Positions 6,825 through 33,708 of a DNA stretch of 64,000 bases are shown here, in pieces. Source of the stretch: an uncultured Candidatus Saccharibacteria bacterium (GTDB lineage Bacteria; Patescibacteriota; Saccharimonadia; Saccharimonadales; UBA4665); NCBI GenBank assembly GCA_964647125.1, contig CAZYFP010000001.1, positions 108,072 to 172,071 of the forward strand, written 5' to 3'. The notes under the pieces were generated by a model. That model did not search any database. It saw nothing but the letters and a program-made list of their open reading frames with translations, and had not been told where the DNA came from. Within the stretch, counting starts at the first letter, position 1. Each line of letters begins with the position of its first letter. A program made the translations under genes and the position numbers.

Positions 6825-8045
6825 ATGGATATGGATTTTAAACAACTTGCGGTAGCGATTAAGGCTATTGCAGAAGAGAAGAACTTGCCTGAAGCAACTG
6901 TGCAAGAAGTAGTAGAGCAGGCTTTGGCCGCTGCCTACCGCCGCGACTACGGCGATCGTGAGCAAGAAATACGCGTGACTATGAACTTGAACACCGGCGA
7001 AGTCGATGCATACATCGAAAAAGAAGTCGTTGAGCGAGTCGGTAACGACGCCTTTGAGATTAGCCTAGCTGACGCCCAAGTCCGCAAAAAGAGTGCCAAA
7101 ATTGGTGACATGATCGAGCAGCACGAAAAGGTTGAGACGTTTGGTCGTGTAGCTGCCCAGACTGCCAAGCAAGTTATTTTGCAGCGTCTGCGAGAAGCTG
7201 AGCGCGAAATCGTGATGGCTGAGTTTGAAGACAAAATCGGCACCGTTATTAACGCCGTTGTTAGTCGCGTAGAAGGTAACATCGTGCGTATTGACCTTGG
7301 TCACGCGCAGGGCATCATGCCTCGTAGCGAGCAGATTCAGGGTGAGCGTTACTACCCAGGCCAGCGCCTAAAGGTATTTTTGAAGGATGTTGAGCGCGGC
7401 TTCCGTGGGCCACAGCTAATTGTGAGTCGTGGTAATACTGCATTTGTGGAGTGGTTGTTCCGCGGCGAAGTTCCAGAGATGGATGGTGGCGCTGTTGAGA
7501 TTAAGGCAATCGCCCGCGAAGCTGGAGTACGCAGTAAGATCGCTGTTGCCAGTAACGTTCAGGGTGTAGACCCAGTCGGTACTTTTGTCGGCGGTCACGG
7601 TACTCGTGTGAACGCCGTTATGAGTGAAATTGGCGAACAGGAAAAGATCGACATTATTGTCTTTAGCGACAATACCATCGAGTACATCACTAATGCACTC
7701 AGCCCAACCAAGGTAAGTCGTGTAGAGCTTGACGAGGCAAATAAAAAAGCCCGAATTGTAGTGCCAGAAGACCAGCTCAGTATTGCTATCGGTAAGAGTG
7801 GTCAGAACGTACGTCTTGCTAGTAAGCTAACCGGGTACGAGCTCGATATTGCAGCCGATGCTGCACCTGCTACGCCGGCTGATGCTGAGCCTGCTAGCGA
7901 AGTTGTTGCAACACCTAGCGCTAGCTCGGATGTAGTAGCCGAAGGCAAGATCGAAACAACTGAGCTGCCAAAGCAGCCAAAGCTGAAGCGCAAGAGTGAT
8001 CTTGAAAAAGGTCTACTAGAGGCTATCGAAGAGCACGGCGAATAA
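6825..8045 (+). CDS. nusA: transcription termination/antitermination factor NusA
   Basis: N-terminal AIKAIAEEKNLPEATVQEVVEQALAAAYRR, an S1 region (GTVINAVVSRVEGNIVRIDLG), and KH repeats (DPVGTFVGGHGTRVNAV; LSIAIGKSGQNVRLASKLTG). AAGGAGAA RBS is present; the start could be 6831. Confidence 0.93.
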   Translation: MDMDFKQLAVAIKAIAEEKNLPEATVQEVVEQALAAAYRRDYGDREQEIRVTMNLNTGEVDAYIEKEVVERVGNDAFEISLADAQVRKKSAKIGDMIEQHEKVETFGRVAAQTAKQVILQRLREAEREIVMAEFEDKIGTVINAVVSRVEGNIVRIDLGHAQGIMPRSEQIQGERYYPGQRLKVFLKDVERGFRGPQLIVSRGNTAFVEWLFRGEVPEMDGGAVEIKAIAREAGVRSKIAVASNVQGVDPVGTFVGGHGTRVNAVMSEIGEQEKIDIIVFSDNTIEYITNALSPTKVSRVELDEANKKARIVVPEDQLSIAIGKSGQNVRLASKLTGYELDIAADAAPATPADAEPASEVVATPSASSDVVAEGKIETTELPKQPKLKRKSDLEKGLLEAIEEHGE

Positions 8046-8175: not shown

Positions 8176-8556
8176 ATGAGTGAGCAATGTCCATTTGCGG
8201 CAGACATTCGAGGATCGGTTGAGTTAGATCCCGGAGATCCTGGTTTTTCGTATGTGCCACAATCTTGTGTAGGTTGTCTTGAACTGCCGCTCAGGAATGC
8301 AGCCGAAAGTATTCCGCAAGAATACCTTGAAGAACTTGAGGAGGACTGCATGGACTTCATGTCTGACTCGGCTACCGCCACCACTGTTTTTGCATGGGCA
8401 AGGAATGCCGACAGTACTATCACGGTTACGCGCGAGTCACGTCAAGTCTGGATGCGGGGAGATGAAGAGGTGTCCATTGAGTATCATAGTCGGCGAACGG
8501 CGAAAATTGTATGTGAAAAAGAAGTTCAATTAGCACTCTGGGTTGACGAGTGCTAA
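8176..8556 (+). CDS. hypothetical acidic Cys-containing protein (126 aa)
   Basis: TGcTATAAT lies 6 nt upstream of the ATG. The protein has one CxxC (SCVGC) and an acidic centre, and its stop codon is the last triplet of the CIRCE right arm. Confidence 0.5.
   Translation: MSEQCPFAADIRGSVELDPGDPGFSYVPQSCVGCLELPLRNAAESIPQEYLEELEEDCMDFMSDSATATTVFAWARNADSTITVTRESRQVWMRGDEEVSIEYHSRRTAKIVCEKEVQLALWVDEC
8530..8556. promoter_or_regulatory. CIRCE element (HrcA operator consensus) upstream of clpC
   Basis: Exact TTAGCACTC-N9-GAGTGCTAA with N9 = TGGGTTGAC. It is identical to the copy at 29234-29260. Confidence 0.85.
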
Positions 8557-8572
8557 TTTGTGATGATACTAT
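8543..8572 (+). promoter_or_regulatory. sigma70-like promoter embedded in CIRCE (clpC)
   Basis: TTGACG (8543-8548, in the CIRCE loop and right arm), 18 nt spacer, TACTAT (8567-8572). Confidence 0.5.
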
Positions 8573-8661
8573 TTAGTTAGTAGCTTTTCTGGACTTCAAA
8601 AGTAGATATCTTACAGAAGTTTCTCAGGAAAGAACGCTACAATACTAGTGTTACTCGAAAG

Positions 8662-11163
8662 GTGGCCCACAAGATGTTACCAAACTCCTCAGATTTCCAA
8701 GATTTTTTGAATCATCTCACTAACAATGCATTGCAAAGCATTAAGCATGCCGATGCAATCGCGCGCAGCTTTGGTAGTGCGTATGTTGGCACAGAACACC
8801 TACTGCTCGGTGTGCTGGCACAAGAAACGAGCATGGGTTCAAAGATTCTTGAGGGCGCGGGTGTAACATTAGATCGCGCGCGTTTAGCACTAAACATGAA
8901 CCCTAAAACGCTCGTCATCAATATGGGTGCCAAAGGCCTAAGTGAGGCGGCCAAGCTTACTTTACGCATGGCGTATGATGTTGCGCAGGACTATGGCCAA
9001 GAATACTGTGGCACCGAGCACATTCTCTACAGCATACTGAGTCAAAAAAATGCCAGTGCTACTAAGCTACTGCGCGGTATGAATGTGGATGTCGATACAC
9101 TCGTCAGTGAACTCGAACAATTTTTGAATCGTCAGCAGTACGAAGAAGACGCTGAGGGTGACATGCCTGGAGGCGGTCGCAAAACAGCCACCAAAAAAGC
9201 CCGTAAAACTGCTCTAGATACCTACGGCACTGATCTGACTGCGGAGGCCAAAGCTGGCAAGCTTGATCCGGTAGTTGGCCGCGAGAATCAGATTCGGCGC
9301 CTGGTAACTATCCTGAACCGCCGCACCAAAAATAACCCAGTGCTGATTGGTGAACCAGGGGTCGGCAAAACGGCTATTGTTGAAGGACTTGCCCAGCGCA
9401 TAATTGCTGAGGACGTACCAGACACCTTGCTTGATAAGCGCATCGTCATGCTGGACCTTGCTGGCATGATTGCCGGTACCAAGTACCGTGGTGAATTTGA
9501 AGAACGACTGAAGAAAGTCATGGGCGAGCTAGAGAAAGACAGCAAGACCGTTGTGTTTATCGATGAGCTGCACTTAATAGTTGGTGCCGGAGCTGCCGAA
9601 GGGGCTATGGATGCTGGCAACATTCTGAAGCCAGCACTCGCACGAGGGAAAATACAGCTGATTGGTGCCACGACTACTGATGAATATACCAAGCACATCG
9701 AAAAAGATTCTGCCCTCGAGCGTCGTTTCCAGCCAATTCAAGTACCCGAAACGACCAAAGGCGAGACATTGGCCATTTTGAAGGGCCTCCGAAAGCATTA
9801 CGAAAAATTCCACGGTGTAAAAATTAGCGATGAAGTGCTGGCAGACACCGTGACACTGGCGGCTCGCTACATAAATGACCGCTTTATGCCTGACAAAGCG
9901 ATTGATCTACTGGATGAAACTGCCGCTCACCTTCGAGTCGACAAGGGCAAGACCAATCCAGAAGTTCGCCGCTTGCAAAAAGAATTAAAGCTGACAAATG
10001 CCCGAATTGACGAAGCAGTTGATGCGGAAGATTACGAGCGCGCAGCTCGCTCAAAAACTCGCGCTAGCCAGATCAAGGAAGAACTAGAAGCGTTACATAA
10101 AACAAATAAAACAGTAAAGCGCCTGACGCTTACCAGCGAAGACATAGCTGACGTGGTAGCCCGGATTACCGGTGTGCCAGTCAAAAAGGTGATTCGGTCT
10201 GAAGCGAAGTATTTGCTAAACCTGGAAAAAAACATTGGCAAACACGTCATTGGCCAAGAAGAAGCAGTCGCTGCCGTGTCACGCGCTATCAGACGTAATC
10301 GTGTAGGTATTGGTAGCGAAAGTCGTCCCATTGGCTCGTTCATATTCCTAGGACCAACCGGTGTTGGTAAAACAGAGCTTGCCAAGGTACTTGCCCGTGA
10401 ATTTTTTGGCAGTGAAAAGAATCTAGTCAAAATAGACATGAGCGAATTCGGCGAACATCACAATGTTTCGCGACTGGTGGGTGCACCAGCTGGCTACGTC
10501 GGTTATGACGACGGCGGTCAGTTAACTGATAAAATCCGTCGCCAGCCGTACAGTTTGGTGTTGTTTGATGAGATCGAAAAGGCACATCCAGACGTGTTTA
10601 ATATGCTACTGCAAGTACTCGAGGATGGTCATTTAACTGACGCCAAGGGTCGAAAAATTGACTTCACGAACACGATCATCATCATGACCAGTAATATTGG
10701 GGCAGACAAACTACAGAAGGAAGCAAGTCTTGGGTTTAGCGCTGTGCGCACGACTGACCTGAATGATCTCGATGCATTGCATGCACAGAACAAAGAAAAG
10801 GTGATGGATCAGCTGAAAAAGGAGCTGCGTCCGGAGCTGCTCAACCGTATTGATAAAACGGTGGTCTTCCGTGCTCTAACTAAGAAAGATATCTACAAAA
10901 TAATTGACCTACAGGTTGATGAGCTACGGACACGACTACAAAAGCGTGGTTTGAGTGTTCAGCTGACACCTGCCGCCAAGAGTTATTTGCTCGAAAACGG
11001 TTATGATGCCAAAAATGGCGTCCGGCCACTGCGTAGATTAATTCAGGACACGATTGAAGATAAAGTTGCGCTCGACCTGCTCGATGAAAAATATTTGAAG
11101 GGTGATATCATACAGGTAGCAGCCAAAAACGGCGCACTATCGTATGCGACAACAACCGAATAA
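8662..11163 (+). CDS. clpC: ATP-dependent Clp protease ATP-binding subunit ClpC-type (class I AAA+)
   Basis: Duplicated Clp-N repeats ([10 protein letters not shown] / [10 protein letters not shown]), two Walker A motifs ([15 protein letters not shown]; [15 protein letters not shown]), and a UVR-like linker ([25 protein letters not shown]). The more likely start is ATG 8674, which has AAGGTGG 9 nt upstream. Confidence 0.9.
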
Positions 11164-12172
11164 CATTCCTAGTTTCAGTCCAGAATCTTCTGAACCACGC
11201 GGTCGCGTGTGGTTGGGCCGCTTCTTCTTGCTGGTATTGCTATCGCTAGTAGCTGGAGTATTTTGGCAGCGCCAAGCCATACGAGACTGGATACAGCTGT
11301 ACGGCTACGAACCTCCAGCGAATATTGCAAGTCTCGCAAAACAGACGACCATGACCGACAAGGCCGAGCACTTGTTTTACCTCAACAAACCCATTGTCGC
11401 TAGCAAGAGTGCTTTCGCAAATTACTGCACAAATCAGGAGCAAACAATAGTACTTGGCTGTTACCACAGTGGCCAGGACGGCATATTTATTTTGCAGATT
11501 GCTGCCAATTCGGAACTGGGTGGTGTCATGCAGGTAACGGCTGCCCATGAAATGCTGCATGCTGCCTACGAGCGCTTGGCGCCAGATGAAAAAAACCGAC
11601 TGAACGAGTTGCTTCAAAATTTTTACGACAGTGGGCTCAAGGATAAAGCTATTAAAAGCGAAGTAGATGCCTATCGAAAAACTGAGCCTGGTCAGTTGCT
11701 TAATGAGATGCATTCAATATTTGGTACCGAAGTCGCCAAGCTGCCGAGTGCTTTGCAGCGCTACTACGGACAGTATTTTACCAACCGCAGCAGTGTAGTT
11801 ATTCAGGCGGAACGTTATCAGTCTGCCTTTCGAAAACGAGAACTCGCTGTGAAGAGGTATGATCAGCAATTAACTAACTTGCAGGCTGTTATAGACAGTA
11901 ATCAGGGTGTATTAACGGCCAAAGCCGCTCAGCTCCAGACTGCTCGGTTGCAGCTAGAAAAGGATAGAGCATCTGGTAATATTTCGGCCTACAACGCGGC
12001 CGTACCAGCCTACAATCAGGCTGTGCGCAGCTACAATAGCTTGCTTGAAACCACCAAGCGACAAATTGTGCAATTCAATACAATTGTGACTAAGCGAAAT
12101 GCTTTGGTTGTAGAAGAGCAAGATCTGGTAAAACAGCTGAGTGGTGACTCGCTACCCGCAGCTCAACAATAA
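11144..12172 (+). CDS. hypothetical membrane-anchored protein with HExxH motif and coiled-coil C-terminal half
   Basis: N-terminal TM segment (FFLLVLLSLVAGVFW), AAHEMLHAAY, and a Gln/Ala-rich heptad-like C-terminus. It overlaps the clpC end by 20 nt. Confidence 0.6.
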   Translation: MRQQPNNIPSFSPESSEPRGRVWLGRFFLLVLLSLVAGVFWQRQAIRDWIQLYGYEPPANIASLAKQTTMTDKAEHLFYLNKPIVASKSAFANYCTNQEQTIVLGCYHSGQDGIFILQIAANSELGGVMQVTAAHEMLHAAYERLAPDEKNRLNELLQNFYDSGLKDKAIKSEVDAYRKTEPGQLLNEMHSIFGTEVAKLPSALQRYYGQYFTNRSSVVIQAERYQSAFRKRELAVKRYDQQLTNLQAVIDSNQGVLTAKAAQLQTARLQLEKDRASGNISAYNAAVPAYNQAVRSYNSLLETTKRQIVQFNTIVTKRNALVVEEQDLVKQLSGDSLPAAQQ

Positions 12173-17906: not shown

Positions 17907-19610
17907 ATGCTGCGCCGCTTACTTAATACTAAACACCTGGTGCCGGCGGCCGTCTTTTTTCTTTTCGTTGGCTACAACTTGACTGTTGTCGGCCCAGCCT
18001 ATTTATCCGACGAGGCTGCCTACCTGTCTAAGGCTGCTACTGTTGCGGGCAGCACAGTTCATCATTCGACAAGTTGGTTTGGTGGCTACTCTGTACTGAT
18101 TAGTCCAGCGTATCTGCTGTCGTCCAACATCTTCGTGCAGTGGCATATTGTCATGATTATTAACGCTCTGATGTGGGTCGTTACCACCTACTTGCTGCGC
18201 TATGTACTCCAGCAAACACATCCTAAGGCTAAGCGACTACATATTGAACTCGCAACACTTGGCGCAATACTGTATCCGGCGTGGTTATCAATGAGCGGCT
18301 ATGCGTTTTCAACCAGCGGGTTTGTACTAGTACTGCTGGCAGTATTTTCAGCCCTTGCTAAAAGCCGGCTAAAGAGTCTGCCTTGGCTATGCTTGGCTGG
18401 TCTTGCAGCCGGTTATCTGTACTGGATACATCCATTTGCGATATTGTTTGTCGGCCTGTTCGTTGTTCTGTTGCTGGCACTTGCCTGGTCACAAAAGCGG
18501 AAAGAGTTATTAGTAGTTCCACTCATTAGTGCGGGTATGGCTGTTTTGTACACAATTGCTGTGCAGCCATGGTTTGTGGAGCGAATGAAATCTAGCCTCG
18601 GTAGTGATGACCACTACAGTCGCGGGGTTCACTATGTTATATCAGCGTTTTCTTCGCCATCGGTGTGGGGAAGTATAGCCCTTGAGCTGCTAGGGTTGTT
18701 ATTTACGCTTATCATTGCGACATTTGGATTTGCAGTGTTTGCTGCAGTCCCAGTTTGGCAGCGGCTAGTAAAAGATCGCCGTAAATGTCGTACGCTGTTG
18801 CAGGATACGAGCTTTGTACTACAGCTACTCGCGGTACTCAGTGTCGTACTAATACTGGGTTTTGTTGCAGTGCTGTGGGGCACAAACGGCCACCGCAGGA
18901 TCGACCACTGGATTTACGAACGCTACACCGATATGTATATTTTGCCCCTGTTGGCGATGGGCTTGCTGGCGCGCTGGCGTTTGAAGTGGTCGGCATTTTT
19001 GGCAGGCCTGGTGCTGGCTATTGGTATCGTGTTGAGCCTTGTAACGAATCCGGCAAACACTTCATTTCGGTTTGTAAACAAGGTTGACTTGCAGGCGTTG
19101 TGGTCAATGCATGCAGCGTCTGCCGTGACGAGTACTATTGCCAACTATTGGCTGTGGGGGTTGATTGGTGCCATTGGTGTGCTATTCGTCGGGTTTGCGA
19201 CGGGAAAGCGGAAACGGTTACTCTGGCTGCTGGCTTTGCCAATAGCATTAAGTGCGGCGGGTAATTACAGATACCACCACGCCATTATTCGTGATCACTC
19301 AATGGTTACATCTCTTTACGACCAACTCAAGAATACCTACTCGCGGTCGGACTGTATTGGTTTCACGCCGCAAAAAAATAGCAGTGAGCGTTTTCAATTG
19401 TACGCGTACTACTTGCATGGCTATAACTTGCGACAAATGACCCTGCAACAGTGGCAGCAATCCTGTGCCGGGCCATACCTAACGTACCGACTACCGCCTC
19501 AAAGTAGTTTTAGCTATGACATTGTTGGCCGTGAAGAAATCAGCGGATTATATTTAATCACTAAGGCACTACCACGTCACAACACAGCCGTGCCACTTTT
19601 GTTCAAGTGA
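17907..19610 (+). CDS. polytopic membrane protein, probably a GT-C-fold glycosyltransferase
   Basis: 567 aa with more than 10 predicted TM segments. LSDEAAYLSKA follows the first TM, resembling the DE-x-x-Y loop motif of ArnT/PMT-type enzymes. Confidence 0.55.
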   Translation: MLRRLLNTKHLVPAAVFFLFVGYNLTVVGPAYLSDEAAYLSKAATVAGSTVHHSTSWFGGYSVLISPAYLLSSNIFVQWHIVMIINALMWVVTTYLLRYVLQQTHPKAKRLHIELATLGAILYPAWLSMSGYAFSTSGFVLVLLAVFSALAKSRLKSLPWLCLAGLAAGYLYWIHPFAILFVGLFVVLLLALAWSQKRKELLVVPLISAGMAVLYTIAVQPWFVERMKSSLGSDDHYSRGVHYVISAFSSPSVWGSIALELLGLLFTLIIATFGFAVFAAVPVWQRLVKDRRKCRTLLQDTSFVLQLLAVLSVVLILGFVAVLWGTNGHRRIDHWIYERYTDMYILPLLAMGLLARWRLKWSAFLAGLVLAIGIVLSLVTNPANTSFRFVNKVDLQALWSMHAASAVTSTIANYWLWGLIGAIGVLFVGFATGKRKRLLWLLALPIALSAAGNYRYHHAIIRDHSMVTSLYDQLKNTYSRSDCIGFTPQKNSSERFQLYAYYLHGYNLRQMTLQQWQQSCAGPYLTYRLPPQSSFSYDIVGREEISGLYLITKALPRHNTAVPLLFK

Positions 19611-27487: not shown

Positions 27488-28771
27488 ATGCAGATTAAAA
27501 AAGAACAACTCACCCCTACCAAGATTAAATTGACGCTGGGCGCTGAGCCAGCGTTAATTGATGAGGTTAAGCACCATGTGCTGCAAGACCTAGCTAAAAA
27601 GGTCAAGGTAGCAGGCTTTCGTGAGGGCAAAGCGCCCTTAAGCATGATTGAAAAAAGCGTCGACAGCACTATGCTGCACTCGGAGTTTTTGGAGCACGCC
27701 GTCAACCGCCTGTATTCCGAAGCGATTACGCAAGACCGACTGCGCCCTATCGATAACCCAGAAGTGTCGGTGACAAAGTTCGTACCATTTTCAGAACTAG
27801 AAATCACTGCTGAAGTTGACGTTGTTGGTGATATCAAACTACCAGATTATAAGAAGATTAAACTTGCCAAGCCGGCTGTAAAAGTAACGGCGGCAGATGT
27901 TGATGACGTTTTGAAAAAGCTACAAACCCGTCTGGCAGATAAAAAAGATGTCACACGTGGCGCTAAGGCAGGTGACGAGGTCACTATCGACTTCAAGGGC
28001 ACTGACACGAAGACCAAAGAGCCAATCTCTGGTGCTGACGGTACCGACTATCCGTTGGTGCTTGGTAGTGACAGCTTTATCCCAGGATTCGAAGACGAGC
28101 TGATTGGGCTCAAGACTGATGCCACCAAGACCTTTGATATTGTGTTTCCAAAGGAGTACAGCGTGTCTGCTTTGCAGAGCCGCAAAGTAACTTTCGAGGT
28201 GACGGTTAAGAAAGTCCAGGAACTAACCGAGGCAAAACTCGATGATGCTATGGCTGCCAAGGTTGGCCCGTTCAAGACGCTTGCTGAGCTAAAGGCAGAT
28301 ATTAAAACTCAGGTAACAGCTGAGCGACAGCAAGAAACTGACCGACAATTCGAGAGTGACCTACTAGAATCCGTAGCCAAGAAGACCAAGGCGGCTATTC
28401 CGCCAGCCCTAATTGATGAAGAAGTTGAGCGCCAAGTTGGCCAACTTAAGCAAAATTTGATGTACCGTGGCCAAACCTGGCAAGAGTTTCTAGACAGTGA
28501 AAAGAAAACCGAAGAAGAATTTAGCGAAAGTCTGAAGCCCGTTGCTGAACTTCGTGTGACTGCCGGCCTAGCACTGTCCGATATTGCTGAGCTAGAAGGT
28601 ATTGTGATCACGGCTGATGATATCGATGTACGCTTGCAGCTCATGAAGGGCCAGTACCAAGACCCAGCCATGCAGGCAGAGCTTGATAAAATTGAAACTC
28701 GCCGCGAAATCGCCCAGCGCCTGCTGAGCGAAAAAACCATTGCCAAACTGACCGAGTACGCAACTAAGTAG
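27488..28771 (+). CDS. tig: trigger factor
   Basis: Ribosome-binding signature GFREGKAP, a central FKBP-like region (DFKG...G...F.PGFEDELIG), and a C-terminal helical arm. The tig-clpP neighbourhood is typical. Confidence 0.92.
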   Translation: MQIKKEQLTPTKIKLTLGAEPALIDEVKHHVLQDLAKKVKVAGFREGKAPLSMIEKSVDSTMLHSEFLEHAVNRLYSEAITQDRLRPIDNPEVSVTKFVPFSELEITAEVDVVGDIKLPDYKKIKLAKPAVKVTAADVDDVLKKLQTRLADKKDVTRGAKAGDEVTIDFKGTDTKTKEPISGADGTDYPLVLGSDSFIPGFEDELIGLKTDATKTFDIVFPKEYSVSALQSRKVTFEVTVKKVQELTEAKLDDAMAAKVGPFKTLAELKADIKTQVTAERQQETDRQFESDLLESVAKKTKAAIPPALIDEEVERQVGQLKQNLMYRGQTWQEFLDSEKKTEEEFSESLKPVAELRVTAGLALSDIAELEGIVITADDIDVRLQLMKGQYQDPAMQAELDKIETRREIAQRLLSEKTIAKLTEYATK

Positions 28772-28777
28772 ACTGAT

Positions 28778-29233
28778 ATGTCAGAGCAGCTCGGTTTATT
28801 CGCAGAAGCAATAATCAAACCCGAGCCTAGTGGTGCCGAAACAGATACAGAAGATTGTCTACCAGGGCTTGAGCAGTCCAACGTACTACACATGGTGTTT
28901 AGTCAGTCACGCTTAAAGCAAGTGACTGACCGAGCCCATAGCTTCGATACCTGGTATCGACACGACGCCGCAGAGGATCACTCGCAATTATTCTTTACGC
29001 ATTTCAAGCACGACGACGATGTGCGACTGGGAATTGTGAATATCTATTTGCGTCCATCCGGCGGTTTCATCTGCAACGCAGAGATTCAGGATGCAAAAGA
29101 CCCCGACGACAGTAAATGCATGCTGGTAGCTGCTGGCTACGAAAACCCATTCCAGGTCAGGCAGTGGCTCGAGGAGTTAATCATAAGTGATGTCGTAGAG
29201 TACGTTACAGACGACCCGTACAAGTACGCATAG
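28778..29233 (+). CDS. hypothetical acidic protein (151 aa)
   Basis: It starts 6 nt after the tig stop and ends 1 nt before the clpP CIRCE. Its N-terminus MSEQLGLFAEAI resembles that of ORF 8176. Confidence 0.5.
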   Translation: MSEQLGLFAEAIIKPEPSGAETDTEDCLPGLEQSNVLHMVFSQSRLKQVTDRAHSFDTWYRHDAAEDHSQLFFTHFKHDDDVRLGIVNIYLRPSGGFICNAEIQDAKDPDDSKCMLVAAGYENPFQVRQWLEELIISDVVEYVTDDPYKYA

Positions 29234-29260
29234 TTAGCACTCTGGGTTGACGAGTGCTAA
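29234..29260. promoter_or_regulatory. CIRCE element (HrcA operator consensus) upstream of clpP
   Basis: Exact TTAGCACTC-TGGGTTGAC-GAGTGCTAA. Confidence 0.85.
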
Positions 29261-29276
29261 TTGTTGGGCGTATACT
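29247..29276 (+). promoter_or_regulatory. sigma70-like promoter embedded in CIRCE (clpP)
   Basis: TTGACG (29247-29252), 18 nt spacer, TATACT (29271-29276). The clpP ATG is at 29329, preceded by a GGAGG RBS. Confidence 0.6.
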
Positions 29277-29328
29277 CTGTATATAACTTTTCACACGCCT
29301 TGCAGCGTGCACAAATGGAGGTAAAACT

Positions 29329-29931
29329 ATGAGCGTATTAGTCCCAACTGTTATCGAAAGCGAAGGCCGTTACGAGCGCGCCTATGACATATATTCTCGC
29401 TTGCTAAAAGATCGCATTATATTCCTTGGCAGTGATGTCAACGAAGTGTCGGCTAATGTCATTGTGGCCCAGCTACTGTTCCTGCAGTCTGAAGATGCTA
29501 AGAAGGACATCTTTTTGTATATAAACAGCCCCGGTGGTAGCGTATACGATGCCTTGGCTATCTATGACACTATGCAATTTGTTACCAACGACGTGCAGAC
29601 CGTTGGTATTGGTGTGCAAGCCAGCGCAGCAGCGTTTTTGCTAAGTAGTGGTGCAAAAGGTAAGCGATTCCTATTGCCCAATAGTACGGTTATGATCCAT
29701 CAGCCGAGCAGTGGTACGCGTGGTAAGGTGACTGACCAAGAGATTGATCTTAAGGAATCTCTGCGTATCAAAAAGCTGCTGGAAGAAATTATGGCTAAAA
29801 ACACCGGCCAGAAGCCAGCCAAAATCCATGAAGACATGGAACGTGACAAGTGGCTGACATCTGACGAAGCTCTGAAGTACGGTATTGTCGATAAAGTAAT
29901 CAGCGATATCACCATTCCTCAAAAGGCTTAG
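29329..29931 (+). CDS. clpP: ATP-dependent Clp protease proteolytic subunit
   Basis: [27 protein letters not shown], a Ser in ASAAAFLL that aligns to the catalytic Ser of the usual ASMGAFLL, MIHQPS (His), and [17 protein letters not shown] (Asp). Confidence 0.93.
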
Positions 29932-30141
29932 TTTAGCTAAAGCACTTGACACAAATTGTATAGTCCGGCACACTGTAACGTAAGAAGTAGTGTAAGCCGG
30001 GCTGTGCTCGTTTTTGCCAACGTTACGTTGTAGAAACCGCACCAAACACGCCCAGTTTAGGAACCTTCGCGCGAACAACTACAAAACATTTATTAACCAC
30101 CAATAACACCGGTAATTATAAGGGGGCGTTGACGTCTGCGT

Positions 30142-33100
30142 ATGGCTGAAAACACTAAAGCGAAGAAGACTAACACTAATAACCAACGGGTATATTTCAC
30201 AAGCGCCGGAGACGATTCGCTTGATTTGCCTAGCTTGGTTGATCACCAAAATAAATCATTCCAGTGGTTTATTCAGGAAGGCCTCAGTGAATTATTCGCT
30301 GAAATTAGCCCAATCGAAGACTACACTGGTGCAAAACTAACCCTTAGCTTCAAGGACTACCACTTTGAAGCACCAAAGATTAGCGAAACTGATGCTCGTG
30401 AGAACAACGTCAGTTTCGATGCACCACTCAAGGCAAACGTAGAGCTAGTAAACAAAGTTACCGGTGAAGTAAAAGAGCAAGAGATTTACCTCGGCGACTA
30501 CCCATGGATGACCGAGCGCGGTACCTTTGTGATTAATGGCGCAGAGCGTGTTGTGGTAAGCCAGCTGATTCGTTCGGCTGGTGTTTTCTTTACTGCCGAT
30601 GCCCACGGCACACACAATCTGTACGGCGCCAAGGTTATTCCTGGTCGTGGTGCATGGCTGGAGTTTGAGACCGCTGCTGCTGGCGCTATTTTTGTAAAGA
30701 TTGACCGCAAGCGTAAGCTACCAGTAACCACACTGCTTCGCGCACTGGGTGTTACTGAATCTCAGATGAAAGATGCCTTCAAGCACGTTGACCAAGGTAA
30801 AGTTAGCCACCTCCAGGCTACACTTGATAAGGATACTGCTCATGGCCAAAATGAAGCCCTGATCGAAGTCTACCGCCGCCTGCGTCCAGGTGACCTCGCA
30901 ACTGTTGACAACGCTCGTAGCCTTATTGAAAACATGTTCTATAACTTCAAGCGCTTTGACTTTAGTCGTGTTGGTCGTTACAAGATCAACAAGCGCCTTG
31001 ACCTGAACGTTCCTAACACCACCGAAAACCGCGTTATGCGTATCGAAGATCTGCAGGCTATCATTGCCGAGATCATGCGCCTCAACAACACACAGGAGCC
31101 TGCTGACGACATCGATAGCTTGGCAAACCGCCGTGTGAAATTAGTTGGTGAGCTTGTACAGCGCCAGTTCCGTATTGGTCTGCTGCGCATGGTGCGTAAT
31201 ACCCAAGACCGTATGAGCATGAGTGAAATCGAGACAGTTGCTCCTGGGCAGCTTATCAACGCTCGTCCAGTGGTGGCTGCTGTTCGTGAATTCTTTGCCA
31301 GTTCACAACTTTCACAGTTCATGGACCAGATTAACCCACTATCAGAGCTCGCTCACAAGCGTCGCTTAAGTTCGATGGGTCCTGGTGGACTATCGCGTGA
31401 ACGTGCTGGTTTTGAAGTTCGTGACGCCCACGCCACCCACTATGGCCGTATCTGTGCCGTTGAGACTCCAGAAGGTGCCAACATTGGTTTGGTGTTAAAC
31501 CTGGCCAACTACGCTCGTGTCAACGAGTACGGCTTTGTTGAAACCCCTTACCGTAAGGTTATTAATGCCGTTACTGCCAAAGACGCCATCGGTCACATCG
31601 CAAGTGTTGACCTTGACGACGAAAGCGGCAAAGTACTGGTTAAGGCTGGTAGTAAAATTACCGCTGCCGATGCCGCTAAACTTGCCAAAGTAACCAGCAA
31701 AGTCACCTGGCCAGTAAAGGCTCGCACTACGAGCGAAGTTGTCTACCTAGATGCTTACGAAGAAGGTGGCGCAGTCATTGCTGGTGCTGGTAACGACATC
31801 GACGAAGACGGTTATTTTGTAAACGACCGTGTTGGTGCCCGTTTTGATCTACGATCTGGTGAAGTTGATAGCAACGACATTACGCACGTTGATGCCAGCC
31901 TCAACCAAATTATTGGTAGCTCAGCTGGTCTGATTCCATTCATCGAAAAGAACTACGTGTACCGCTCGCTCATGGGTAGTAACCAGCAGCGTCAGGCTGT
32001 ACCACTCGTGCAGCCAGAGTCACCAATTGTTGGTACTGGTCTAGAAGTAGCAGCTGCTCGCAACACCGGACAGGTTGTACTTGCGCAGGCAGATGGTGAA
32101 GTTGTCAAAGCTAGCAGTGACGAAGTCGCTGTTAAGCACAAGGACGGTACCGTTACGTATCAGCCACAGCACTTTATACGCAGTAACGAAGGCACTAGTA
32201 TCAACCAACGCGTTGTCGTAAACACCGGAGACAAAGTTAAAGAAGGCGACGTGCTTATTGAAGGTATGTCTATCCAGAATGGTGAACTTGCACTTGGTAA
32301 AGACCTACTCGTAGCGTTCATGCCATGGGCTGGTTACAACTTTGAAGACGCGGTCATCATTAGTCGCCGCCTTGTTCAGGACGACACGCTTACCTCGGTG
32401 CACATCGTAGACTTCATGATTGAAGTGCGTGAAACCAAACTGGGGCCTGAAATCGTCACTCGTGATATTCCAAACGTTTCAGAAGAAACTCTCCGTCACC
32501 TCGACGAGGACGGTATTGTTCGCATCGGTGCTGAAGTCCACCCTGGTGATATCTTGGTTGGTAAAATTACACCTAAGGGTGAACAGGAACTTTCCAGCGA
32601 AGAGCGATTGCTCCGTGCGATCTTTGGTGAAAAGGCCAAGGAAGTTCGTGATACTTCACAGCGTATGAGTAACGGTAAACACGGTAAAGTCGTTGGCGTA
32701 AAGGTATTTAGCCGCGAAAATGGTCACGACCTAAAGGCTGGCGTATTGATGCAGATCCAAGTCTTTGTGGCTCAAATGCGCAAGATTAGCGTGGGTGACA
32801 AACTTGGTGGTCGTCATGGTAACAAGGGCGTTATTGCCCGAATTCTTCCAGAAGAAGACATGCCATTTACTGAAGATGGTACTCCTGTAGATATCATTTT
32901 GAACCCACTCGGCGTGCCATCACGTATGAACATCGGGCAGCTGTTTGAAACACACCTCGGTATGGCTGCACGTGCCCTTGGCATGAAAGTTGCCAGCCCA
33001 TCGTTTAATGGTGTGTCTGAAGACAAGATTAAGGAACTACTGAAAGAAGCTGGCCTGCCAGAAGACGGCAAGCAGCAACTATTCGACGGGCGCACAGGTG

Positions 33101-33708
33101 AAGCCTTTAAGGAACGTACCACTGTCGGTGCTATGTACATGATCAAGCTCAACCACATGGTTGCTGACAAGATCCACGCTCGAAGTACCGGTCCATACAC
33201 CATGGTTACTCAGCAACCACTCGGTGGTAAGGCACAAAACGGTGGTCAACGCTTTGGAGAGATGGAAGTATGGGCTCTCGAAGCCTATGGTGCCGCATAC
33301 ACACTACAGGAAATGCTTACCATTAAGTCTGACGATGTGTACGGACGTTCTAAGGCATACGAAAGTATCATCAAGAAAACCGACATCATTGGTCCAAAGA
33401 TTCCAGAAAGCTTCAACGTCCTTGTCAAAGAACTGCAAGGTCTTGGCCTGAAAGTTGACCTGGTCCAAAGTGACATCGTGGTTGATGCCGAAGAAGTTTT
33501 GGCTGGCAACATTCGCGACGAAGGCGAGCACCAGTCGACTATCGAGGTACCAGCACCATCAATTTCTGACGTTGACGTAACCGAAGAAGAGCCAAGTCTG
33601 GACGAAGATTTCAGCATCATCGAAGCTGATGAAGTTGCAGCAGAACTAGAAAAAACTGAGAACGTTGCGGCACTTGTTGCAGACGACGAAGGGGAGGAGA
33701 CAGCCTAA
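30142..33708 (+). CDS. rpoB: DNA-directed RNA polymerase subunit beta
   Basis: 1188 aa with conserved blocks FMDQINPLSELAHKRRLS, GRHGNKGVI, NPLGVPSRMNIGQ and GGQRFGEMEVWALEAYGAA. Confidence 0.97.
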   Translation: MAENTKAKKTNTNNQRVYFTSAGDDSLDLPSLVDHQNKSFQWFIQEGLSELFAEISPIEDYTGAKLTLSFKDYHFEAPKISETDARENNVSFDAPLKANVELVNKVTGEVKEQEIYLGDYPWMTERGTFVINGAERVVVSQLIRSAGVFFTADAHGTHNLYGAKVIPGRGAWLEFETAAAGAIFVKIDRKRKLPVTTLLRALGVTESQMKDAFKHVDQGKVSHLQATLDKDTAHGQNEALIEVYRRLRPGDLATVDNARSLIENMFYNFKRFDFSRVGRYKINKRLDLNVPNTTENRVMRIEDLQAIIAEIMRLNNTQEPADDIDSLANRRVKLVGELVQRQFRIGLLRMVRNTQDRMSMSEIETVAPGQLINARPVVAAVREFFASSQLSQFMDQINPLSELAHKRRLSSMGPGGLSRERAGFEVRDAHATHYGRICAVETPEGANIGLVLNLANYARVNEYGFVETPYRKVINAVTAKDAIGHIASVDLDDESGKVLVKAGSKITAADAAKLAKVTSKVTWPVKARTTSEVVYLDAYEEGGAVIAGAGNDIDEDGYFVNDRVGARFDLRSGEVDSNDITHVDASLNQIIGSSAGLIPFIEKNYVYRSLMGSNQQRQAVPLVQPESPIVGTGLEVAAARNTGQVVLAQADGEVVKASSDEVAVKHKDGTVTYQPQHFIRSNEGTSINQRVVVNTGDKVKEGDVLIEGMSIQNGELALGKDLLVAFMPWAGYNFEDAVIISRRLVQDDTLTSVHIVDFMIEVRETKLGPEIVTRDIPNVSEETLRHLDEDGIVRIGAEVHPGDILVGKITPKGEQELSSEERLLRAIFGEKAKEVRDTSQRMSNGKHGKVVGVKVFSRENGHDLKAGVLMQIQVFVAQMRKISVGDKLGGRHGNKGVIARILPEEDMPFTEDGTPVDIILNPLGVPSRMNIGQLFETHLGMAARALGMKVASPSFNGVSEDKIKELLKEAGLPEDGKQQLFDGRTGEAFKERTTVGAMYMIKLNHMVADKIHARSTGPYTMVTQQPLGGKAQNGGQRFGEMEVWALEAYGAAYTLQEMLTIKSDDVYGRSKAYESIIKKTDIIGPKIPESFNVLVKELQGLGLKVDLVQSDIVVDAEEVLAGNIRDEGEHQSTIEVPAPSISDVDVTEEEPSLDEDFSIIEADEVAAELEKTENVAALVADDEGEETA

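Follow-up and report, generated by a model that had tools for sequence, protein, structure and literature searches.

Organization of the clpP and clpC loci

The window, by which we mean the whole 64-kb stretch of Candidatus Saccharibacteria (TM7) DNA analysed, carries two CIRCE operators. At one site, the order of features is tig, an orphan ORF, CIRCE, clpP and rpoB; at the other, it is nusA, an orphan ORF, CIRCE and clpC, with the genes assigned by Pfam. The features of the clpP site are given below, where numbers beginning with L are our own designations for the loci of relatives.

27488-28771, + strand: tig (trigger factor), with Pfam Trigger_N, FKBP_C and Trigger_C; the conserved upstream gene
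28778-29233, + strand: orphan 151-aa ORF in the interval between tig and CIRCE, with no Pfam match and no tblastn match in relatives; absent in L208 and L209
29234-29260, no strand assigned: CIRCE operator at clpP, with 0 mismatches to TTAGCACTC-N9-GAGTGCTAA; orthologous sites in L001-L005 and L208-L211
29234-29242: left arm of this CIRCE, TTAGCACTC
29243-29251: its loop, TGGGTTGAC
29252-29260: its right arm, GAGTGCTAA
29261-29262: flanking TT
29247-29252, + strand: -35 hexamer of clpP, TTGACG, from the promoter scan; its first five bases lie in the CIRCE loop and its last is base 1 of the right arm
29271-29276, + strand: -10 hexamer of clpP, TATACT, 18 nt after the -35 hexamer, from sequence reading and the promoter scan
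29317-29321, + strand: GGAGG ribosome-binding site of clpP, from sequence reading
29329-29931, + strand: clpP, 200 aa; Pfam CLP_protease, E = 5e-75
about 29998-30020, + strand: terminator-like hairpin and T run, 3' of clpP and before rpoB, by consensus match alone
30142-33708: rpoB, by Pfam

The corresponding features of the clpC site are as follows.

6825-8045: nusA, by Pfam
8176-8556, + strand: orphan 126-aa ORF with its stop codon in the right arm of the clpC CIRCE; no Pfam match and no homologue in relatives
8530-8556, no strand assigned: CIRCE operator at clpC, identical to the clpP copy, with identity running to 8558; orthologous sites in L081/L208, L083/L209 and L084/L210
8543-8572, + strand: clpC promoter, with TTGACG at 8543-8548, 18 nt, and TACTAT at 8567-8572 preceded by TG; an alternative GATACT lies at 16 nt
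8674-11163, + strand: clpC, 829 aa; Pfam Clp_N, AAA, AAA_lid_9, AAA_2 and ClpB_D2-small

The clpC start codon, the ATG at 8674, is fixed by an 829-aa database protein (P0001) that is 100% identical. From the end of CIRCE to the ATG there are 117 nt at clpC and 68 nt at clpP, where the operator overlaps the sole predicted promoter. A first-pass annotation of this DNA had described an exact 29-nt repeat that includes an identical N9 and two flanking bases, and had placed TTGACG, an 18-nt spacer, TATACT and GGAGG in that order before clpP. Sequence reading showed all of its coordinates to be correct: positions 29234-29262 and 8530-8558 are the same 29 nt (CIRCE and two flanking T), and the promoter scan agreed with the architecture. 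A consensus search allowing up to 3 mismatches found just these two CIRCEs in the 64-kb window, each with 0 mismatches, compared to a mean of 0.03 in shuffled sequence.

One point needs correction: clpP does not lie directly 3' of tig, as the unconserved 151-aa ORF intervenes, its TAG stop abutting the clpP CIRCE. The 126-aa and 151-aa orphan ORFs are not related to each other, and neither has a counterpart in relatives by tblastn. Intergenic regions are much shorter in relatives than in the window, the tig-clpP gap of L208 being merely 156 nt. The two ORFs may be strain-specific insertions or spurious reading frames. Since the terminator scan predicted no terminator from tig to clpP, read-through from tig is possible as an additional source of clpP mRNA and, judging from the sequence, may contribute to clpP expression.

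Conservation of the operators in related genomes

Relatives for the clpP comparison came from a ClpP scan with one genome per species, in which the closest loci (L001-L005) belong to Candidatus Saccharibacteria MAGs. The window ClpP is 73-90% identical to the ClpP of these other Saccharibacteria and at most 61% identical to that of other phyla. Searches with ClpC and RecG returned hundreds of Saccharimonadales proteins; the clpC relatives were reached through ClpC proteins 93, 89 and 87% identical to that of the window, and the RecG-centred loci span both the clpC and the clpP site of a single genome.

Retention of the clpP element in related genomes had been set as a test beforehand. A CIRCE was present 60-150 nt upstream of clpP in nine of nine close relatives (L001-L005 and L208-L211), reached via ClpP or RecG. 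In all five of L001-L005, it had at most 3 mismatches and lay 60-80 nt before the clpP start. Upstream of clpC, a perfect CIRCE was found in three of three relatives (L081/L208, L083/L209 and L084/L210), 120-165 nt before the start codon. Perfect CIRCEs thus stand at both genes in L208, L209 and L210, and L211 has one at clpP, its locus covering the clpP side and ending short of the clpC upstream region. The arms departed from the consensus in one form only, CTGGCACTC...GAGTGCCAA in L002, and this form of CIRCE has been listed before, for Desulfovibrio groESL. This conservation supports the original proposal, in which a CIRCE bound by HrcA is fused with the promoter of clpP and clpC would be co-regulated.

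The ClpP scan found no CIRCE within 4 mismatches at clpP in 74 loci of other phyla. In L067, a distant Saccharibacterium whose ClpP is 56% identical, none was detected at clpP (9500-10010) even at 7 mismatches, suggesting that HrcA controls clpP in one clade and not throughout the phylum.

Several reading frames in these loci stood out during the comparison. The window contains a 567-aa ORF with no Pfam family between tyrS and recG (17907-19610), which also occurs in the same-strain Logan contigs L212 and L213 but not in L208-L210; it has the appearance of an insertion specific to this strain. Two other genes, rpoB in L209 (19011-22034) and an M1 peptidase gene in L084 (3605-6150), are each broken up into several ORFs. 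The accessions of the two ENA assemblies concerned are adjacent (ERZ250394xx-395xx), and the breaks are probably assembly frameshift errors rather than pseudogenes.

A predicted promoter with its -35 box in the operator loop

The promoter scan gave TTGACG-18-TATACT, with 10 of 12 matches, as the sole sigma-70-like site in 28600-30200. We compared this arrangement over 14 sites reached through their proteins, without selection on a DNA motif (10 genomes for clpP, four for clpC). The loop contains TTGAC at every one of the 14 sites, with a -10-like hexamer (A at position 2, T at position 6) 16-18 nt downstream; the hexamers in relatives are TATACT, TACTAT, TATCAT or TACAAT. TTGAC occupies loop positions 1-5 (register A) at five sites and positions 5-9 (register B) at nine. 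The chance of finding it at either position in a random 9-mer is about 2 per thousand.

Given the presence of TTGAC in all 14 loops and of a -10 hexamer downstream, the operator brackets the -35 box. The loop is the sole part of CIRCE that is free to vary, and it hosts this box. With the -35 box in the loop, the HrcA half-sites lie just upstream of it and within the spacer between -35 and -10, a geometry that suggests simple occlusion of RNA polymerase. A transcript started at this promoter would not contain CIRCE.

These observations bear on the proposal that the palindrome acts as RNA, serving as a terminator or as a processing or stability hairpin for the tig and nusA transcripts, with clpP expressed by read-through. 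CIRCE can form a hairpin of 10 bp (-7.5 kcal/mol as DNA, z = -3.2), and no other terminator was predicted between tig and clpP. In Bacillus subtilis, moreover, CIRCE is transcribed and affects mRNA stability. However, the CIRCE sequence of the arms is kept exactly from genome to genome, with no free covariation, and the departure in L002 is itself a known CIRCE variant. The conserved TTGAC and its distance to the -10 hexamer have no role in an RNA hairpin, and clpP mRNA from the embedded promoter would lack the element altogether. No T run follows the stem, the tails being TTGTTGGGCG and TTTGTGATGA. An intrinsic terminator was rejected, as the scans called none at either the clpP or the clpC site. 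Altogether, we regard a function in RNA as highly improbable and favor a DNA operator over the promoter.

Downstream of the clpC promoter, a further conserved segment was noted in the leader. In the window, L208, L209 and L210, the sequence between the CIRCE promoter and the start codon (8610-8643 in the window) contains CTTACAG, 20-21 nt and GCTACAAT. This motif is absent from the more distant clpC loci L138, L176 and L107, and Rfam returned nothing for the leader. The motif may represent either another operator or a second promoter independent of HrcA; a second promoter would argue against control of clpC by HrcA alone.

Identity of the two loops

Two accounts had been offered for the identical N9 at clpP and clpC: that the sites are recent copies, or that the loop is constrained because it serves as the -35 box. 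The second account stands for TTGAC, invariant at the 14 sites, so the -35 box explains five of the nine identical loop bases. It fails for the remaining four (TGGG), which vary between genomes. In register B, TTGAC is preceded by TGGG, CGGG, TATG, TATA or GCAC; in register A, it is followed by GCTC, CTAT, CTTT, TAAT or ACGA.

In the sister genome L208, the clpC and clpP elements are likewise identical, over 33 nt. In L209, the loops differ (TTGACGCTC at clpC and TATATTGAC at clpP), as they do in L210 (TATGTTGAC at clpC and TTGACCTAT at clpP), and in both genomes the two genes use different registers. Identity within a genome is therefore not maintained, and these two pairs rule out a functional need for identical loops. 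At clpP, TGGGTTGAC or CGGGTTGAC occurs in the window, L208, L002 and L211; at clpC, only in the window and L208. On this distribution, full loop identity goes back to the common ancestor of the window genome and L208 and reflects lineage history, not a requirement.

The first account, in which the 29-mers are recent copies left by a mobile or repeat element, a duplication or gene conversion and have no regulatory meaning of their own, draws on the exactness of the repeat. In the repeat search, among the 20 largest of 22 direct-repeat families, this pair was the sole two-copy family with 100% identity, and a short conversion tract could also yield the 33-nt identity in L208. However, when the clpP and clpC regions were aligned, the match ended exactly at 29 nt, at the limit of the operator, and the flanks were unrelated. 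Many genomes have the sites at orthologous positions, their arms conserved and their loops variable, and the identical pair recurs in L208, while the loops of more distant relatives differ, in register as well as sequence in L209 and L210. The L210 clpC loop (TATG) is just two substitutions away from TGGGTTGAC (TGGG), and a couple of point mutations, or else conversion over a very short tract, could make the loops identical. A mobile or dispersed repeat element was rejected, there being two copies in 64 kb with identity confined to 29 nt. Recent copying without regulatory meaning consequently seems very unlikely to us, and we retain the reading of two orthologous, conserved operators.

Other genes behind the same operator-promoter unit

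A metagenome scan for AGCACTC-N4-TTGAC-GAGTGCT yielded at least 120 loci (L085-L204). The genes downstream of the TTGAC-loop CIRCE were as follows.

hsp20: at least 60 loci, many on contigs named human-gut metagenome
clpB-like: at least about 20 loci, about 40% identical to the window ClpC
clpP: at least 9 loci, all 69-84% identical to the window ClpP and Saccharibacteria-like
groES(-groEL): at least 7 loci
clpC: at least 3 loci, Saccharibacteria-like and 54-59% identical
short hrcA: at least 3 loci
dnaJ: at least 2 loci (L186 and L198)
lon: at least 1 locus (L113)

Judging from these matches, the design in which CIRCE holds the -35 box in its loop is common. Among the matches listed, CIRCE at clpP is restricted to Saccharibacteria-like loci. 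The GroES proteins of L116 and L132, which carry the TTGAC-loop CIRCE, are named Candidatus Saccharibacteria or Saccharimonadota at NCBI, indicating that a canonical HrcA target in Saccharibacteria uses this unit.

The hsp20 and clpB-like sites from gut and rumen metagenomes resemble those of the window in using register B (loop positions 5-9 for TTGAC), with the -10 hexamer about 17 nt further downstream. They differ in belonging to other organisms and other targets, and usually have an extended -10, TGnTATAAC. Together, the metagenome hsp20, clpB-like, lon and dnaJ sites look like a large HrcA regulon of this architecture in gut anaerobes.

The candidate repressor

Neither the 64-kb window nor the Saccharibacteria loci compared yielded an hrcA in tblastn searches with three CPR HrcA queries, which matched only their own source loci. 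The short Logan contigs reached through rpsI and RecG contained no hrcA either. In the metagenome collection, short hrcA genes lie at 1380-2114 of L148, 4053-4730 of L195 and 5429-6142 of L112. By source name, L148 belongs to Parcubacteria/Moranbacteria and L195 to Kuenenbacteria, and none of the hrcA loci is from Saccharibacteria. In these other CPR lineages, hrcA stands directly behind a TTGAC-loop CIRCE, which is the classic arrangement for autoregulation.

HrcA proteins of CPR and Saccharibacteria measure 222-247 aa, about 100 aa less than the canonical protein of about 340 aa. Their match to the Pfam HrcA C-terminal model begins near model position 87, and the sequence seems to lack part of the canonical middle region. 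The N-terminal winged-helix domain of CPR HrcA aligns with residues 15-98 of T. maritima HrcA (E = 7e-20). In the cultivated Saccharibacterium Southlakia epibionticum, the published supplementary listing gives SEML1_0720 the Pfam families PF01628 and PF03444 and places it next to GrpE; its residues 6-240 are matched to two of the ECOD domains in T. maritima HrcA (Wang et al., 2023; PMC10633639).

The length of these proteins and the absence of hrcA from the window and the Saccharibacteria loci compared could be taken to mean that the CIRCE-like operator is bound by some other regulator, such as a short HrcA with lost function or changed specificity. Against this stand the strong alignment of the winged helix, the position of other CPR hrcA genes directly behind the same operator, and the perfect match of the operator to the universal CIRCE consensus. 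We therefore give little credence to a different regulator and continue to favor HrcA.

Other heat-shock regulators were considered as well. For the CtsR box (tandem heptad RGTCADNNANRGTCAD), the window contained two one-mismatch matches (at 118 and 35679) compared to 1.66 expected, neither of them near clpC or clpP. A text search of the Southlakia epibionticum tables returned no CtsR, RpoH, HspR or ClpX (PMC10633639). Within the literature searched, no report linked HrcA to Saccharibacteria and none came up for the wider CPR, and a TM7x transcriptome study offered no usable co-regulation data.

ClpCP as a predicted member of the HrcA regulon

According to Pfam and a motif scan, the window ClpC combines a Clp_N domain with two AAA+ modules, contains two Walker A motifs, and has the tripeptide LGF at residues 686-688. 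Clp ATPases dock on ClpP through an [LIV]GF tripeptide. In the text search, the Southlakia epibionticum tables showed one ClpP and one Clp ATPase, the latter beside nusA in the same synteny as in the window (PMC10633639). Taken together, the operator shared by clpC and clpP, the docking loop of ClpC and its status as the only annotated Clp ATPase in a cultivated relative predict that ClpCP belongs to the HrcA regulon.

We consider it very likely that a CIRCE/HrcA operator covers the sigma-70-type clpP promoter and that the identical unit at clpC brings ClpCP into a class I HrcA regulon, where we infer that HrcA is the bound protein. The chaperone repressor HrcA has thus probably come to control the only Clp protease of a reduced-genome lineage. 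Binding of HrcA at the clpP and clpC sites, the transcription start, heat induction and feedback through GroEL are predictions, the mechanism being modelled on the known HrcA system.

In the proposed mechanism, active HrcA on both arms would block RNA polymerase from the -35 region and keep clpP expression low. In the Bacillus subtilis model, free GroEL keeps HrcA active. Unfolded proteins would titrate GroEL, upon which HrcA would lose activity and clpP would be derepressed. Under the identical operator-promoter unit, clpC would respond in the same way, as might groES of Saccharibacteria, which has the same design.

A broader proposal is more speculative and, in our estimate, may well prove wrong. 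In Saccharibacteria and perhaps more widely in CPR, GroESL, the DnaK system and ClpCP would all answer to one master regulator, a short HrcA of about 225-245 aa without part of the canonical C-terminal region. The module with the -35 box in the loop would slide between two registers 4 bp apart with control kept, and operators would occasionally homogenise, as in the window genome and its sister.

Relation to known CIRCE/HrcA systems

CIRCE and HrcA normally control groESL and dnaK, as in the dnaK and groE operons of Bacillus subtilis (Zuber and Schumann, 1994, as cited in PMC3192767 and PMC3842655). The sites described here share with that class I regulon the 9-bp inverted repeat TTAGCACTC-N9-GAGTGCTAA and the placement of a repressor-type operator at proteostasis genes, including groES in Saccharibacteria. 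In contrast, clpP and clpC are under CtsR (class III) in B. subtilis, whereas here they have CIRCE. The position of the operator differs as well. The B. subtilis CIRCE lies downstream of the promoter in the transcribed leader, while that of the window brackets the -35 box and would be absent from the mRNA.

A closer parallel for clpP is Streptococcus salivarius, in which the gene is described as being under both CtsR and HrcA (Chastanet and Msadek, 2003, cited as ref. 22 of PMC3842655). There too, a CIRCE upstream of clpP puts the proteolytic subunit under HrcA. However, CtsR also acts in S. salivarius, while the window has no CtsR box near either gene and the cultivated Saccharibacterium has no CtsR annotated in the table text; in addition, the ATPase partner clpC carries the same operator here. 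Regulons of HrcA that reach beyond chaperones have been described in other lineages. In Mycoplasma gallisepticum, CIRCE is found upstream of clpB, lon, dnaK and dnaJ (PMC4245973), and clpL of Lactobacillus gasseri is cited as being under HrcA (in PMC3192767). The Mollicutes resemble Saccharibacteria in having reduced genomes with few transcription factors and in extending HrcA control to AAA+ proteases and unfoldases, but they are a different lineage, and the targets there are lon and clpB as opposed to clpC and clpP in Saccharibacteria/CPR.

To our knowledge, transcriptional regulation in Saccharibacteria and CPR has been explored very little, and almost no regulatory sites have been described. 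The CIRCE/HrcA system itself is established, and our understanding of how it works is unchanged; what appears to be new is a predicted HrcA regulon that takes in both ClpCP subunits in a reduced-genome lineage. The prediction is that groESL, clpC and clpP are under one regulator in an episymbiotic, genome-reduced lineage. Protease control, which is given to CtsR in Firmicutes, seems to have been taken over by the HrcA circuit, as in Mollicutes. The 27-mer with its embedded promoter could provide a stress-inducible promoter-operator cassette for the emerging genetic tools of Saccharibacteria, as well as a probe for annotating CPR promoters.

A conserved reading frame adjoining clpC

A 342-aa ORF (11144-12172) lies between clpC, whose end it overlaps, and radA. 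The ORF is present in every relative examined and has no Pfam match except a weak one to AAA_13. Its position matches that of the 999-nt hypothetical gene SEML1_0511 of Southlakia, and its product may be a partner or adaptor of ClpC.
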